Shown here: one piece after another, positions 1,767 through 31,109 of the stretch
Layout: each line of letters starts with the position of its first letter
How positions within the stretch are numbered: the stretch's first letter is position 1
Assembly: GCF_048403405.1 (NCBI RefSeq)
Contig: NZ_CP183129.1
Reading direction: 5' to 3' (one strand)
DNA from: Escherichia coli
Lineage (GTDB): Bacteria > Pseudomonadota > Gammaproteobacteria > Enterobacterales > Enterobacteriaceae
Length of the DNA stretch: 64,000 nucleotides
Program-made: the position numbers and the translations under genes
Notes under the pieces: generated by a model
Databases searched by the model: none
Told to the model about the DNA's origin: nothing
Seen by the model: the letters and a program-made list of their open reading frames with translations, nothing else

Positions 1767-3128
1767 TTACTTCTCCAGTTGGCGTAATATCTTATTAACT
1801 TTATCAAAAGTTTCCTGATATTCCGCTTCTTCCTGGCTATCGGCGACAATTCCACCGCCCGCAGAGCAGTATATTTGTCCGTTAATGGCAGTCAGAGTGC
1901 GGATAGTAATGCTGGTGTCCATGTTGCCGCAAAAGCTCAAATAGCCAATGCTGCCGCACCAGGCATTACGTCGCTGCGGTTCCAGTTCGTCGATAATTTC
2001 CATAGCCCGTACTTTCGGAGCCCCGGTTATTGAGCCACCAGGAAAAGCTGCGCGCAGCAGATCGCTGGCGTGTAACTGTTCTGGTAGTTGCGCCGTTATG
2101 GTGCTGACCAGATGATGCACGGCAGGGAAGGGTTCCACCACGAACAGCTCTGGTACTTTTACCGAACCTGCTACGGCAACACGACCGATATCATTACGCA
2201 TTAAATCGACAATCATCAGATTTTCGGCACGATCTTTCGCTGAGTTCGCCAGTTTTTCTGCTTGTTTGCTATCTTCCTGAGGATCGGGCAGGCGTGGTAG
2301 CGTGCCTTTAATCGGGCGGGTCTGGATTTCACTATTATCACAAAGGATAAACCGCTCTGGCGAAAGGCTTAAAATCGCACCCTGTTCAAGACGTAAAAAA
2401 GCGCTAAACGGCGCGCGGTTGGCCTGATTAAGCTGAAGGAATGCCTGCCATTCATCGCCAGAATAGGTCGCATGAAAACGCTGGGCGAGATTCACCTGAT
2501 AGCAATCACCGCTGTGCAGATATTCCTGTACCTGGCGAAATTTTTCGCCGTACTGCTCGCGGGTCATATTGGATTGCCAGTCGGAAGTGAGCGTGAAATC
2601 TTCCTGCGGGGAGAATTGCTGGCTTTCCAGCCATGCCCGACGGGCATTGACATCATTATGACTCAGCAAAGAAACTGTATGACGCTGGTGGTCAACAACC
2701 AGCGCCCAGTCGTAGATACCCACTGCCATATCCGGCAGAACGATATCTTGCTGCGCAATTTCTGGCAGTGACTCAAAACGGCGGCCCAGATCGTAGCCAA
2801 ACAACCCCAGTGCGCCGCCCTGAAATGGCAAATCTTCGTTATGCGTTGGGCGAATGTCTGCGCGATCCAGCACCTGCTGGAGCACCTGTAGCGGGTCATC
2901 AGTGGTCGTTGTGCGTTTTTCGCTTTCACTAACAACGGTTTCTTTACCGAAAGTGGTTAAAGTGCAAATCGGCTCGGCGACCACAATATCAAAGCGGCTA
3001 TATGGATGATCGGCATAGCCGGAGTGTAAAAGCATCGCCCACGGCAGGTGGCTTAAGCGGGAGAAATAAAATTCAGCGGCGTCCTGACGCCAGGGTAAAG
3101 TAATCACAGCGGGAGATAACGTCTTCAT
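1767..3128 (-). CDS. pabB: aminodeoxychorismate synthase component I
   Basis: 453-aa ORF, chorismate-binding enzyme family (…SLSPERF…, …PGGSITGAPK…); 3 bp downstream-adjacent to nudL. Confidence 0.93.
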   Translation of the reverse strand: MKTLSPAVITLPWRQDAAEFYFSRLSHLPWAMLLHSGYADHPYSRFDIVVAEPICTLTTFGKETVVSESEKRTTTTDDPLQVLQQVLDRADIRPTHNEDLPFQGGALGLFGYDLGRRFESLPEIAQQDIVLPDMAVGIYDWALVVDHQRHTVSLLSHNDVNARRAWLESQQFSPQEDFTLTSDWQSNMTREQYGEKFRQVQEYLHSGDCYQVNLAQRFHATYSGDEWQAFLQLNQANRAPFSAFLRLEQGAILSLSPERFILCDNSEIQTRPIKGTLPRLPDPQEDSKQAEKLANSAKDRAENLMIVDLMRNDIGRVAVAGSVKVPELFVVEPFPAVHHLVSTITAQLPEQLHASDLLRAAFPGGSITGAPKVRAMEIIDELEPQRRNAWCGSIGYLSFCGNMDTSITIRTLTAINGQIYCSAGGGIVADSQEEAEYQETFDKVNKILRQLEK

Positions 3129-18901: not shown

Positions 18902-19150
18902 ATGGGCATTCTGTCATGGATTATTTTTGGGCTTATTGCCGGTATTCTGGCGAAGTGGATCATGCCAGGTAAAGATGGTGGTGGATTCTTTATGACTATC
19001 CTGCTGGGGATAGTCGGTGCCGTAGTCGGCGGATGGATCAGCACGCTGTTTGGCTTTGGTAAAGTCGATGGCTTCAATTTTGGCAGCTTCGTGGTTGCCG
19101 TTATTGGCGCGATTGTCGTGCTGTTTATCTACAGAAAGATTAAAAGTTAA
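18902..19150 (+). CDS. yeaQ: GlsB/YeaQ/YmgE-family small membrane protein
   Basis: 82-aa ORF with glycine-rich TM helices (MGILSWIIFGLIAGILAKWIMPGKDGGG…). Confidence 0.9.
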   Translation: MGILSWIIFGLIAGILAKWIMPGKDGGGFFMTILLGIVGAVVGGWISTLFGFGKVDGFNFGSFVVAVIGAIVVLFIYRKIKS

Positions 19151-19163
19151 CGCGTAAATTGCA

Positions 19164-19198
19164 CAAAGGCTGCACACAGGCAGCCTTTGCTATTTTCT
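19164..19198 (+). terminator. intrinsic terminator of yeaQ
   Basis: Stem CAAAGGCTGC / GCAGCCTTTG with 6-nt loop, followed by CTATTTTCT. Confidence 0.8.
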
Positions 19199-19208
19199 AG
19201 ATGTGACG

Positions 19209-19283
19209 TTACCACCATCCCAGCTCAGTGCCGAGTACGACAATAATCGCCACACCCATCATAATAATCGTTGTTTTTTTCAT
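19209..19283 (-). CDS. yoaJ: small membrane protein (24 aa)
   Basis: Minus-strand ATG at 19283: MKKTTIIMMGVAIIVVLGTELGWW; below ORF-track cutoff. Confidence 0.7.
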   Translation of the reverse strand: MKKTTIIMMGVAIIVVLGTELGWW

Positions 19284-19285
19284 CT

Positions 19286-19384
19286 TTATGCTCCCGGGGC
19301 AGCATAGCCGCCAATAAAAAACCATGCTAAAAATACGACCGCTGTAATAAAGATTACAACCGGAAAAATAATACCGATTCGCAT
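19286..19384 (-). CDS. yoaK: small membrane protein (32 aa)
   Basis: Minus-strand ATG at 19384: MRIGIIFPVVIFITAVVFLAWFFIGGYAAPGA; stop 2 nt upstream of the yoaJ start codon. Confidence 0.7.
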   Translation of the reverse strand: MRIGIIFPVVIFITAVVFLAWFFIGGYAAPGA

Positions 19385-19416
19385 GTTATCACCAATCAAA
19401 AGGATGTGAATACGCC

Positions 19417-20442
19417 TCAGGAATGTAGCGCTGGATGCGCGACAAAAGGTGTTTTCTGTTTGCGTTTTTTCTCCTGATACATCGCGATATCGGCAGCATG
19501 CAGGGCACTGTCTGCATCGGTCGTTTCAGGATCGACTTCTACTATGCCAAGACTGGCACCGGGATAATACAAATCAACATCACCTAAGTGATATTCTCCG
19601 CATATTTGCTGCTGAATACGTTCTCGCAGAGACGAAATATCCGCATTCTCGTTGTTCAGTGAAACAACCAAAAACTCATCACCGCCGAGACGACCAATAA
19701 CTTCGCCATTTTGCTGGAGCGTATTAAGGCGCTCGCCAACCTGAATGAGGAACAAATCACCACTATTATGACCAAAACGATCGTTGATTAATTTGAAGTT
19801 ATCCAGATCGATAAACGCGATCATTATCTTATGGTTAAGATGTCGGGCGAGAGAAAACAGCGTCGTCAGGTTTTCAAAAATCGCCCGCCGATTCGGTAGC
19901 CCGGTTAACGAGTCGGTATACGATTGCGCAATCAGCGCAGCATTGGCTTCGCGCAGCTGTTCAACCAGTGCCTCTTTTTGAATATATTGTGCAATCAGTC
20001 CGGCGAATAACTGTAAAACCTGTTCCGCGCGTTCACTCCACTGGCGCTTCTCACTACTGGCGGCGCAAAGCGTGCCATAGAATGATCCATCCGGTAAGTG
20101 AATTGGCGTGCTCAGAAATGTGGTGATGCCAAGATTGCGTGCCGCAATACAGTCGCCCCAACGGTCAGGGACTTCATCGCTGAAAAAGCAGTTTTCATCA
20201 ATGGCGCGTTTGCATAACGAGTAATCCCACGAGACGGTAAAATTCTCCGGGATGTGCATTTTCTGGCTGTTACGGGCAAACATAATATGCTGCAGGCGCG
20301 CTTCGACATCCACTTTGGTCAGGTAGGTTGATTCCATATCAGTGACCATTTCCAGCATCTCCAGAAGCTGTCGGACCAGACTTTCCAGTGACTGTTCTTT
20401 GGCAAGGGATTGCGAGACGCGGGCGATAATCTGATCTGACAC
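19417..20442 (-). CDS. dgcP: diguanylate cyclase (GAF-GGDEF)
   Basis: Start taken at GTG 20442 (VSDQIIARVSQSLAKEQ…, 341 aa); intact GGDEF motif RLGGDEFLVV. Confidence 0.88.
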   Translation of the reverse strand: MSDQIIARVSQSLAKEQSLESLVRQLLEMLEMVTDMESTYLTKVDVEARLQHIMFARNSQKMHIPENFTVSWDYSLCKRAIDENCFFSDEVPDRWGDCIAARNLGITTFLSTPIHLPDGSFYGTLCAASSEKRQWSERAEQVLQLFAGLIAQYIQKEALVEQLREANAALIAQSYTDSLTGLPNRRAIFENLTTLFSLARHLNHKIMIAFIDLDNFKLINDRFGHNSGDLFLIQVGERLNTLQQNGEVIGRLGGDEFLVVSLNNENADISSLRERIQQQICGEYHLGDVDLYYPGASLGIVEVDPETTDADSALHAADIAMYQEKKRKQKTPFVAHPALHS

Positions 20443-29174: not shown

Positions 29175-31109
29175 TTAAGACGATTTACGTACGCGCAAAT
29201 ACCATTCGCACAGTAAACGCACCTGTTTACGGGTGTAGCCTTTTTCCATCATACGGTCGACAAAATCGTCGTGTTTCTTTTGCTCGTCGGTTGACGTTTT
29301 GGCGTTAAACGAAATAACCGGCAACAGCTCCTCGGTATTGGAGAACATTTTCTTCTCAATAACCGTGCGCAGTTTTTCATAGCTGGTCCAGTTCGGATTG
29401 CGTCCGCTGTTATTCGCTCTGGCGCGCAGTACGAAGTTAACAATCTCGTTGCGGAAATCTTTTGGATTACTGATCCCCGCCGGTTTCTCGATTTTCTCCA
29501 GCTCGGCGTTAAGAGACTCGCGATCAAACAGCTGCCCGGTATCCGGATCGCGATACTCCTGATCCTGAATCCAGAAATCCGCGTAGGTAACATAACGGTC
29601 GAAAATGTTTTGCCCATATTCGGAATAGGATTCAAGGTAGGCCGTCTGGATCTCTTTGCCGATAAACTCGGCATATTTCGGGATCAGATAACCTTTCAGG
29701 AACTCCAGATAGCGTTCTGCCTGCTCTTGCGGGAACTGCTCGCGCTCGATCTGCTGTTCCAGGACGTAGAACAGATGGACCGGGTTTGCCGCCACTTCTA
29801 CATGATCGAAGTTGAACACGCGGGAGAGGATCTTAAACGCAAAACGCGTCGACAGACCGTTCATCCCTTCATCGACACCGGCGTAGTCACGATATTCCTG
29901 ATACGACTTGGCTTTGGGATCTGTGTCTTTCAGACTTTCGCCATCATAAACCCGCATCTTTGAATAAATGCTGGAGTTTTCTGGCTCTTTAAGGCGCGAA
30001 AGAATGGAAAAACGTGACAGCGTTTCCAGCGTGCCAGGGGCGCAGGGGGCGTGAGTCAATTCACTGTGATTAAGCAATTTCTCGTAGATTTTGATCTCTT
30101 CGGAAATGCGCAAGCAATACGGCACCTTCACGATGTAAACACGATCAAGGAAGGCTTCGTTGTTTTTGTTATTACGGAAAGTGACCCATTCGGATTCGTT
30201 CGAGTGGGCGAGAATAATCCCGTTGAACGGCAGGGCGGAGATACCTTCCGTCCCGTTGTAGTTACCTTCCTGAGTGGCGGTTAGCAAGGGATGCAGCACT
30301 TTAATCGGTGCTTTAAACATCTCAACGAATTCCATGATCCCCTGGTTGGCGCGGCACAGTGCACCGGAATAGCCGTAGGCGTCCGGGTCATTCTGCGCGT
30401 AGTGTTCGAGTTTACGAATATCGACTTTCCCAACCAGCGCGGAGATGTCCTGGTTGTTCTCATCACCGGGTTCCGTTTTGGCGATAGCAATTTGTTGCAG
30501 AATTGACGGCCAGACCTTCACTACCCGGAACTTAGTGATATCGCCACCAAATTCATGCAGGCGTTTTGCCGCCCACGGCGACATGATGGTGCCGAGATAA
30601 CGGCGAGGAATGCCATACTCTTTTTCCAGAATCTGCGCATCTTCCTGCGGATTGAAAAGACAGAACGGATGATCGTTGACCGGGCTACGCTCACCGTTGG
30701 CGCTCAATACATAAATCGGTACGAGCTGCATTAATGATTTCAGTCGCTCAGCAAGCGATGATTTACCCCCACCCACAGGCCCCAGCAGATACAGGATTTG
30801 TTTCTTCTCTTCCAGCCCCTGAGCCGCGTGTTTCAGATAAGAGACAATCTGTTCAATCGCGTCTTCCATGCCGTAAAACTCTTCAAACGCCGGATAACGT
30901 GCAATGACCCGGTTAGAAAAGAGTCGAGAAAGTCTGGGTTCCTGGGCTGTATCGACCATGACAGGCTCACCGATAGCCATCAATAGCCGCTCAGCCGCGT
31001 TGGCATAAGCACTGCGATCTTGCCGACAAGTGGTAAGAAACTCCTGCAGTGTGAACTCTTCGTCCTTGGCAGCTTCATATCGCTGGCGATAGTGATCGAA
31101 TATATTCAT
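29175..31109 (-). CDS. yeaG: PrkA-family serine protein kinase
   Basis: 644-aa ORF; Walker A LLGPVGGGKSSLAERLK. Confidence 0.93.
   Translation of the reverse strand: MNIFDHYRQRYEAAKDEEFTLQEFLTTCRQDRSAYANAAERLLMAIGEPVMVDTAQEPRLSRLFSNRVIARYPAFEEFYGMEDAIEQIVSYLKHAAQGLEEKKQILYLLGPVGGGKSSLAERLKSLMQLVPIYVLSANGERSPVNDHPFCLFNPQEDAQILEKEYGIPRRYLGTIMSPWAAKRLHEFGGDITKFRVVKVWPSILQQIAIAKTEPGDENNQDISALVGKVDIRKLEHYAQNDPDAYGYSGALCRANQGIMEFVEMFKAPIKVLHPLLTATQEGNYNGTEGISALPFNGIILAHSNESEWVTFRNNKNNEAFLDRVYIVKVPYCLRISEEIKIYEKLLNHSELTHAPCAPGTLETLSRFSILSRLKEPENSSIYSKMRVYDGESLKDTDPKAKSYQEYRDYAGVDEGMNGLSTRFAFKILSRVFNFDHVEVAANPVHLFYVLEQQIEREQFPQEQAERYLEFLKGYLIPKYAEFIGKEIQTAYLESYSEYGQNIFDRYVTYADFWIQDQEYRDPDTGQLFDRESLNAELEKIEKPAGISNPKDFRNEIVNFVLRARANNSGRNPNWTSYEKLRTVIEKKMFSNTEELLPVISFNAKTSTDEQKKHDDFVDRMMEKGYTRKQVRLLCEWYLRVRKSS

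Follow-up and report, generated by a model that had tools for sequence, protein, structure and literature searches.

The window analysed here, a stretch of 64,000 nucleotides of DNA from Escherichia coli (NCBI RefSeq assembly GCF_048403405.1, contig NZ_CP183129.1), carries two very small genes, yoaK and yoaJ, which lie directly behind the diguanylate cyclase gene dgcP on the minus strand. The features of the locus are the following.

dgcP (yeaP), 19417..20442, minus strand: GAF-GGDEF diguanylate cyclase, from the RefSeq annotation and the ORF; first gene of the dgcP-yoaK-yoaJ transcription unit according to an RNA-seq operon call for yeaP-yoaK-yoaJ (PMC4620388)
Shine-Dalgarno-like GGTGA, 19389..19393, minus strand: 4 nt before the yoaK ATG, read from the sequence
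yoaK, 19384..19286, minus strand: 32 codons plus stop, one transmembrane helix; MRIGIIFPVVIFITAVVFLAWFFIGGYAAPGA
Start and stop of yoaK, minus strand: ATG 19384-19382 and TAA 19288-19286, read from the sequence
GGGAG Shine-Dalgarno of yoaJ, 19291..19295, minus strand: within the last yoaK codons (P-G-A), 7 nt before the yoaJ ATG
yoaK-yoaJ spacer, 19285-19284, minus strand: AG, the junction being TAA-AG-ATG
yoaJ, 19283..19209, minus strand: 24 codons plus stop, one short transmembrane helix; MKKTTIIMMGVAIIVVLGTELGWW
Start and stop of yoaJ, minus strand: ATG 19283-19281 and TAA ending at 19209, read from the sequence
Hairpin, 19164..19189, no strand assigned: common to the convergent yoaJ and yeaQ transcripts, bidirectional terminator-like
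yeaQ, 18902..19150, plus strand: GlsB/YeaQ/YmgE family membrane protein, convergent on yoaK-yoaJ

Read on the minus strand, the region runs ...GGTGATAAC ATG CGA ATC ... GGA GCA TAA AG ATG AAA AAA ... TGG TGG TAA. The stop codon of dgcP ends at 19417, 32 nt upstream of yoaK, and a scan of the region returned no terminator-like site between the two genes. Promoter scans near yoaK yielded nothing above the expectation from shuffled sequence; one of the matches overlaps the yoaK ATG and would leave this codon outside the transcript. Sequence comparison indicates that AGGTGA or AGGTAA is kept at the Shine-Dalgarno position of yoaK in Salmonella, Citrobacter, and Enterobacter. The CCGGG core around the Shine-Dalgarno of yoaJ is invariant in a six-sequence alignment, the Shine-Dalgarno itself being weaker in Salmonella, Klebsiella, and Raoultella. 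The hairpin downstream of yoaJ was matched by the terminator scan on the plus strand. Its minus-strand fold has an 11-bp stem (-18.6 kcal/mol) and a poor U tract, a good T-run being present on the yeaQ side only; five genera retain the stem, and in Salmonella the changes in it are paired. In Raoultella yeaQ is absent beside yoaJ, so it is not a constant neighbour of the pair.

Both genes had already been described in E. coli K-12, as yoaK and yoaJ, and the locus is the same; there is no difference from the K-12 genes in sequence, genomic position, or annotation. Their discovery is reportedly due to the small-protein work of Hemm, Storz and colleagues (Hemm et al. 2008/2010; Fontaine et al. 2011; as cited in PMC4597795 and PMC12542507). 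RefSeq annotates dgcP, yoaK, yoaJ, and yeaQ under a 1-kb region that 5,418 of the 5,426 complete E. coli genomes share at an identity of at least 95%, with both small genes in about 5,400 of the 5,426, and names the products "YoaK family small membrane protein" and "protein YoaJ". The exact peptide sequences carry the names YoaK and YoaJ in NCBI and UniRef. YoaK matches the NCBIfam model NF033821 with 69.1 bits (cut-off 32; E value 1.8e-19), residues 1-32 aligning to profile positions 1-32 of 32, and YoaJ matches NF011343 over its full length, residues 1-24, with 60.4 bits (cut-off 54; E value 1.1e-16). The precomputed tables also list PF28021 for YoaK. All of the family core residues are present in the YoaK of the window (M1, G4, F7-P8, A15, W21-F22, G26-Y27-A28, and P30), and its YoaJ fits the M-[KR]-K-[TS]-T start and G-W-W end, directly 3' of yoaK.

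The original prediction had placed two minus-strand ORFs of 24 and 32 codons between yeaQ and dgcP, with the yoaK stop 2 nt before the yoaJ ATG, and had called them yoaJ and yoaK. The codon counts and the spacing (AG at 19285-19284) are exact, the position agrees with the RefSeq annotation, and the names are borne out both by that annotation and by NF033821 and NF011343, each matched above its cut-off. Its remark that both genes are invisible to an ORF track with a 60-aa minimum holds as well, both ORFs being shorter than 60 aa, and its view that their functions are essentially unknown is in line with the literature. The evidence supports this reading as correct, but it adds nothing beyond the databases; the pair serves instead as a clean positive control, in which a sequence-only reader recovers ORFs of 24 and 32 codons. 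With a minimum of 20 aa the two genes appear as ORFs of 37 and 38 aa, extended to an upstream TTG or ATG, and in the same 1.7 kb there are 41 ORFs of 20 aa or longer, so that an ORF of the size of yoaK or yoaJ is not significant by itself. What raises the pair above chance is conservation: Salmonella, Enterobacter, Citrobacter, Raoultella, Klebsiella, and a dozen other genera have both frames, at unchanged lengths.

Translation, which had been put forward as a check on both genes, is documented in the literature. A ribosome-profiling signal exists for yoaK (PMC4666370, which also gives a two-fold, unverified effect of RyhB), and chromosomally tagged YoaK was detected, among the weaker of the small proteins (10.1101/511675). 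PMC4597795 describes YoaJ as integral to the membrane and co-precipitating with RseP, and gives its N-in/C-out topology as confirmed by Fontaine et al. 2011. According to PMC10470546, purified RseP cleaves both YoaK and YoaJ in vitro, while cleavage in vivo is tag-dependent and inconsistent between constructs, for which reason they are placed among the "class II" substrates. YoaJ is reportedly up after diamide treatment (Hemm 2010, as cited in PMC12542507). A yeaJ-yeaV deletion, in which both genes are gone, left growth and competitive fitness in M9 glucose unchanged (PMC9769844). DgcP is under vegetative control and is expressed in all growth phases (PMC5635695); RpoS-dependence of dgcP is contradicted by the same study, and stationary-phase co-induction of yoaK-yoaJ was rejected on that ground.

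Conservation at the amino-acid level across the Enterobacteriaceae, likewise proposed at the outset as a check, was found for both frames. Eight sequences from six genera, compared in pairs by Nei-Gojobori counting, gave a pooled pS of 0.70 and pN of 0.076 for yoaK (ratio 0.11), and a pooled pS of 0.59 and pN of 0.22 for yoaJ (ratio 0.38). The variable columns at the first, second, and third codon positions number 9/4/25 in yoaK and 13/6/19 in yoaJ, with a third-position excess in both, and YoaK is 75-94% identical across genera while its synonymous sites are nearly saturated. These substitution patterns show purifying selection on both frames. In the DNA flanking exact YoaK variants of Salmonella, Enterobacter, Citrobacter, and Raoultella, yoaK is always followed immediately by a 24-codon ORF, which opens with the conserved M[KR]K[TS]T and closes with the conserved G-x-x-[LF]-GWW.

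A wider scan of species-representative genomes used a degenerate DNA pattern for the YoaK core and returned 119 stretches, from which 80 loci were taken, all of them in genera of the Enterobacteriaceae or in unclassified MAGs. The yoaJ relatives in these loci, found by context only, number 53 of the 80, to which a variant from Enterobacter wuhouensis ending in GCW can be added; among the chromosomal-type loci with enough flank to be evaluated, yoaJ follows yoaK in 54 of 54. The distance between the yoaK stop and the yoaJ start (n = 53) is -4 nt in 8 loci, -1 in 7, 0 in 21, +2 in 14, and +3 in 3. ORF lengths are invariant across about 54 species, at 24 aa for yoaJ and 32-34 aa for yoaK. The representative library also contains "fusion" proteins of 52-97 aa, which are attributable to frameshift or read-through around the A-run at the junction and were not taken as real.

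In 43 of the same 80 loci a GGDEF gene ends 32-57 nt before yoaK (215 nt in one locus). Salmonella and Citrobacter amalonaticus are without dgcP and have kept yoaK-yoaJ intact, and the last ~20 nt of dgcP (…CCTTTTGTC…) can still be aligned upstream of the pair in both. The remnant of the 3' end, together with the intact pair, indicates that yoaK-yoaJ survived the deletion of dgcP. These two lineages constitute a natural experiment and a lead on function.

YoaK begins with two residues (M, then R or K), continues with about 22 hydrophobic ones, and ends in a GGYAxPG tail; YoaJ has a hydrophobic core of about 13-16 residues between MKKTT and GTELGWW. The charge distribution of both peptides fits a single span in the N-in/C-out orientation. 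For YoaK this orientation is predicted by the positive-inside rule from the MR or MK N-terminus and the uncharged C-terminal tail. An alignment of 16 family members obtained by HMM search, and hence independent of the DNA pattern, shows M1, P8, A15, W21, F22, Y27, and A28 to be invariant and G4, F7, G26, and P30 to be nearly so. On a helical wheel with 100 degrees per residue, the conserved positions 4, 7, 8, 11, 15, 18, 22, 25, and 26 fall at 240-340 degrees and the most variable ones (6, 10, 14, 17, 20, and 24) at 100-220 degrees, where conservation in the wheel and in the species scan is partly fixed by the search pattern and is free of this bias for the 16-member alignment and for G4. This one-sided conserved face suggests helix-helix binding of YoaK to a partner in the membrane, and is a concrete lead in that it names residues to mutate.

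The conserved junction raises the question of translational coupling. The spacing expected of a coupled pair is found in the window (+2 nt) and is conserved across genera. Termination-reinitiation coupling of yoaK and yoaJ is suggested by a stop and start that always lie within -4 to +3 nt of each other and by a yoaJ Shine-Dalgarno that is often weak. No significant RNA structure occluding the yoaJ start was found (z = -0.29), and in E. coli yoaJ has a GGGAG of its own, which leaves coupling plausible but unproven. If coupling does operate, ribosomes that have just finished yoaK would go on to translate yoaJ, and the two peptides would be made in a fixed proportion.

Further relatives of YoaK, beyond the known genes, were found in lambdoid phages, where they follow the repressor gene and are unannotated. 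The results of the HMM search, together with cluster names, point to divergent "YoaK family" peptides in lambdoid prophages of E. coli, Serratia, Enterobacter, and Klebsiella, and in all of the contexts examined the ORF lies just 3' of a gene for a CI-like repressor, on the same strand. By tblastn the phages HK106, mEp234, and mEp506 each carry the E. coli phage-type variant with 100% identity, unannotated in all three; the HK106/mEp234 ORF is at 30464-30559 (complement) of NC_019768. In the Klebsiella phage ST974-OXA48phi18.2 the YoaK relative is mislabelled "CI". With one phage-type variant tblastn returned no match, for which the low-complexity filter is a possible cause. The E. coli prophage paralogue is rare, occurring in 6 of 5,426 complete genomes. 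The arrangement in mEp234 is as follows.

mEp234 immunity region, from the immunity-region record: cI, 744-1457; YoaK-like ORF, 1562-1660, on the cI strand; Timm, 2959-2984

The mEp234 ORF thus lies between cI and hicA, upstream of the annotated Timm, which is the slot occupied by rexAB in lambda, and a scan for terminator- and promoter-like sites separating it from cI was negative. The ORF of HK106 is likewise in the rexAB position. A scan of IMG/VR returned 89 viral contigs, of which 80 loci were kept. Fifty-two of these 80 loci carry phage-type copies, corresponding to about 30 distinct peptides of 31-36 aa with a single helix, and a yoaJ-like ORF follows in none of the 52. Each of 20 representatives has upstream, on the same strand, a gene for HTH_3, alone or together with Peptidase_S24; these 20 stand for 45 viral loci with a repressor-type gene ending 13-173 nt before the ORF. 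The cargo behind the ORF is variable and includes HicAB, a HipA-like kinase, BstA (PADLOC, E value 5e-121; the next gene in one group), an ImmA/M78-type protein, SDH-type proteases, NYN, ParA-like, DUF6414, and P63C. The phage-type ORFs have a pN/pS of 0.24 and a codon-position variability of 16/10/26, and thus they too are under purifying selection. YoaJ gave no tblastn match in phages even at an E value of 10; in phages YoaK occurs without YoaJ and is therefore not dependent on it. PHROGs contains no family for the host or the phage peptides, and a literature search returned no mention of YoaK relatives in phages. Well-studied lambdoid immunity regions therefore still hold an unannotated, conserved coding ORF, and its place after cI and ahead of known defence genes makes it a lead for exclusion or lysogen phenotypes. 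The phage contexts, like the c-di-GMP contexts considered below, are new leads and not a demonstrated function.

Other small membrane proteins of bacteria act by binding a larger membrane protein and changing its activity. We propose, as the probable reading of the locus, that YoaK and YoaJ are single-pass peptides co-produced from the dgcP mRNA which act by helix-helix contact with a membrane partner and are turned over by RseP. Past the points that the peptides are real, co-transcribed, and inserted in the membrane, the steps of this scheme are what we infer. YoaK and YoaJ would lie parallel as single-pass peptides and bind each other, a larger inner-membrane protein, or both. Only 2 to 5 residues would protrude on either side of the membrane, and the peptides would consequently have to act inside the bilayer. 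The binding face of YoaK would be formed by G4, F7, P8, I11, A15, F18, F22, G25, and G26, followed by Y27-A28-x-P30 at the periplasmic edge; through it YoaK would contact YoaJ and/or the larger protein and alter the activity of the partner, and unbound copies would be removed by RseP. The most likely target is an envelope function in phage entry or lysogen physiology, with a link to c-di-GMP as the second most likely; the former is favoured because lambdoid phages carry YoaK relatives in a slot after cI that is expressed in the lysogen.

A bolder extension, which we offer as a tentative possibility, is that these peptides constitute a mobile family of about 32 aa whose members form, in lambdoid phages of Enterobacterales, the constant first gene after the repressor, would be expressed in the lysogen, and would target a component of the host inner membrane, for example in a block to the entry of superinfecting DNA or in priming of the variable defence cargo. 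The chromosomal dgcP-yoaK-yoaJ arrangement would then be either a domesticated copy or the donor, with YoaJ gained as a partner, and the recurrent placement after c-di-GMP genes would reflect a shared envelope target. If true, YoaK and YoaJ would gain a first lead on function, and a small ORF that had been overlooked would join the known content of the immunity regions of studied phages such as HK106 and mEp234.

An unlikely explanation is that YoaK, with YoaJ, is an accessory of diguanylate cyclases which localises or tunes the cyclase or acts on a c-di-GMP effector in the membrane; its retention 3' of dgcP would then be accounted for. It has the GGDEF gene directly upstream in 43 of the 80 species-scan loci and the RNA-seq operon (PMC4620388) in its favour, as well as similar neighbourhoods elsewhere. 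In three Buttiauxella species a YoaK-like ORF stands 7-11 nt after a MASE5-GGDEF gene, with no yoaJ behind it, and the GGDEF domain of that gene product is only 31% identical to that of DgcP. The same type of YoaK-like ORF is found in Enterobacter sp. R1, 371 nt downstream of a MASE5-GGDEF gene, and the order in Enterobacter sp. Bisph1 is EAL-HDOD gene, KTSC gene, YoaK-like ORF. Three unrelated c-di-GMP neighbours, dgcP included, are suggestive, with few independent events among them. However, the small number of independent relocations outside phages makes adjacency a weak statistic, and the ~50 phage-borne copies follow repressor genes and not cyclases. Moreover, DgcP is soluble, with no hydrophobic segment in its translation, and YoaK exposes only two cytoplasmic residues, so that direct contact between them is hard to picture, and Salmonella and C. 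amalonaticus deleted dgcP yet kept the pair.

Quite unlikely, in our estimation, is that YoaK and/or YoaJ are toxin-like peptides that depolarise the membrane in the manner of type I toxins or holins, the phage copies being effectors of exclusion or abortive infection and RseP serving in detoxification. Size and hydrophobicity would fit, the phage copies adjoin HicAB, the HipA-like kinase, and BstA, and in PMC10470546 the toxin HokB is degraded by RseP, the protease that cleaves YoaK and YoaJ in vitro as well. On the other hand, the locus showed no family of antisense or overlapping sRNA (best Rfam E values of 0.53-0.79, at chance level), and a scan found no promoter-like site oriented for an antisense RNA beyond chance level. 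The pair is also close to universal in the core genome (5,418 of 5,426) and shares its transcript with a cyclase produced throughout growth (PMC5635695), and the portions of PMC10470546 and PMC4597795 concerned with tagged, plasmid-expressed versions make no mention of toxicity. Purifying selection on one helix face fits specific binding better than a generic pore. Finally, that the ORFs are incidental and the region acts as RNA (a 3' UTR, a terminator, or an sRNA from the dgcP transcript) is highly improbable, since the commonness of ORFs of this size by chance (41 of at least 20 aa in 1.7 kb), the conserved hairpin just downstream, and the low YoaK protein levels (10.1101/511675) are outweighed by the near-saturated synonymous sites and third-position excess in both frames, the invariant ORF lengths over ~54 species, the experimental detection of the proteins (10.1101/511675 and PMC4597795), and the absence of an Rfam family match, and the RNA-only reading is refuted by the coding constraint and by the results of the species scan.

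In comparison with known systems, YoaK and YoaJ resemble the type I toxins Hok, Ldr, Ibs, and TisB as small hydrophobic peptides of the inner membrane, and Hok proteins are, like them, cut by RseP (PMC10470546). They differ from these toxins in that Rfam found no antisense RNA partner at the locus of the window, and in being a constitutively co-transcribed pair of the core genome for which no report of toxicity was found. The likeness to the rexA-rexB slot of lambda, and to other lysogen-expressed genes behind the prophage repressor such as BstA, concerns the phage paralogues and not the chromosomal pair of the window; the phage ORFs likewise follow cI closely on its 3' side and on its strand, but each encodes a single helix of 31-36 aa and not a multi-pass protein or enzyme. 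MgrB, AcrZ, MgtS, CydX, and KdpF are proteins of 25-50 aa with one helix, which makes helix-helix contact with a larger protein (PhoQ, AcrB, MgtA, cytochrome bd, and KdpFABC, respectively). Pfam indicated no sequence similarity of YoaK or YoaJ to any of these five, and several members of this group are RseP substrates in the same screen as YoaK and YoaJ (PMC10470546). YoaK and YoaJ share with this group one transmembrane helix and almost no soluble part; unlike MgrB, AcrZ, MgtS, CydX, and KdpF, they would form a coupled unit of two peptides.

YoaK-like ORFs were found directly behind the CI-type repressor genes of lambdoid phages and prophages. At these loci, which comprise contigs of the IMG/VR viral collection (L030-L081) and prophage loci (L011-L017, L024-L027), the phage-type ORF is the constant first gene 3' of diverse CI-type repressors, and no yoaJ-like ORF was found at any of them. 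The genes that follow are variable, and include HicAB, a HipA-like kinase with DUF3037, BstA, an M78/ImmA-like protein, an SDH protease, NYN, ParA-like, DUF6414 and P63C. A second phage arrangement, in which there is no repressor gene upstream of the YoaK-like ORF, is represented by L032, L036, L038, L040, L042, L043 and L048. Here the ORF is preceded by a strong Shine-Dalgarno sequence, AAGGAGGA, and, approximately 200 nt upstream, by two other tiny ORFs, one hydrophobic and the other Cys/Trp-rich (e.g., MRFTLKIVVLCAAMRCCSLCELWCWNAALN; MKFTFIIAVLCTALWCSLCKLWYWNPALN in L036), while a Bro-N or NYN gene lies downstream.

Outside of phages, YoaK-like ORFs without yoaJ occur in Buttiauxella (L028/L162, L165, L173), Enterobacter sp. 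R1 (L130) and Enterobacter sp. Bisph1 (L110). They lie directly behind a MASE5-GGDEF gene, or behind an EAL-HDOD gene together with a KTSC gene; the MASE5-GGDEF and EAL-HDOD neighbours are c-di-GMP genes unrelated to dgcP. A short remnant of the dgcP 3' end (...CCTTTTGTC...), at approximately 2930-3000, survives upstream of yoaK in the dgcP-less Salmonella (L002/L003) and Citrobacter amalonaticus (L008-L010) loci. In phage mEp234, the last part (3' end) of another repressor gene, one that prophage L011 has in intact form, lies within the approximately 100 nt before the ORF. The small ORF appears to travel together with the 3' tail of its upstream gene.

Among the Klebsiella-type dgcP-yoaK loci in IMG/VR (L083-L108), 24 of the 26 predicted prophage regions have their end precisely on the stop codon of yoaK and include dgcP immediately within the boundary. 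This looks like an effect of boundary calling, the limit being placed at yoaK as the last called gene because yoaJ was not called. These boundaries imply that a prophage is often situated near the Klebsiella dgcP-yoaK locus.

The 40-97-residue 'YoaK' proteins of the representative library (P0017-P0020, P0023, P0031, P0039) result from frameshifting or read-through near the A-run at the junction; P0018 is a 57-residue in-frame YoaK-YoaJ chimera. These longer proteins probably stem from errors in sequencing or assembly, or from rare alleles.

A promoter-like element was noted within the window, and a further small gene in Enterobacter:
Window 19383-19410, minus strand: sigma-70-like pair, TTCACA, 16 nt, TAACAT, with TG.
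Enterobacter L005, 3910-4002: yncL, small membrane protein gene (30 residues; PF28073), approximately 430 nt past yeaQ.
The -10 hexamer of the pair overlaps the yoaK ATG, and a transcript initiated at this pair would not include the start codon of yoaK. Because promoter-like matches in the scanned region were fewer than expected from shuffled sequence, the pair is probably a chance match. Between yoaJ and yeaQ, which converge, a hairpin (window 19164-19189) is kept in five genera and lies at the same position in L002, L004, L005, L008 and L010, with paired changes in Salmonella (G-C to A-U) and single mismatches in Citrobacter and Enterobacter. The position of yncL indicates that small-protein genes cluster around there.

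Members of the family are present also in named phages:
mEp234 (EF120460, L022), 1562-1660: unannotated 32-codon YoaK-family ORF between cI and hicA.
HK106 (NC_019768, L021), 3001-3099: unannotated 32-codon YoaK-family ORF between cI and hicA.
Klebsiella phage ST974-OXA48phi18.2 (L023), 2980-3099: homologous YoaK-family ORF, annotated 'CI transcriptional regulator'.
A third phage, mEp506, likewise carries an unannotated 32-codon ORF in the cI-hicA interval of its immunity region, and the peptide of mEp234, HK106 and mEp506 is MRIGIVFPILVFIVAMGFMAWFIIDGYATPSG. In lambda, the slot taken by this ORF is occupied by rexAB.
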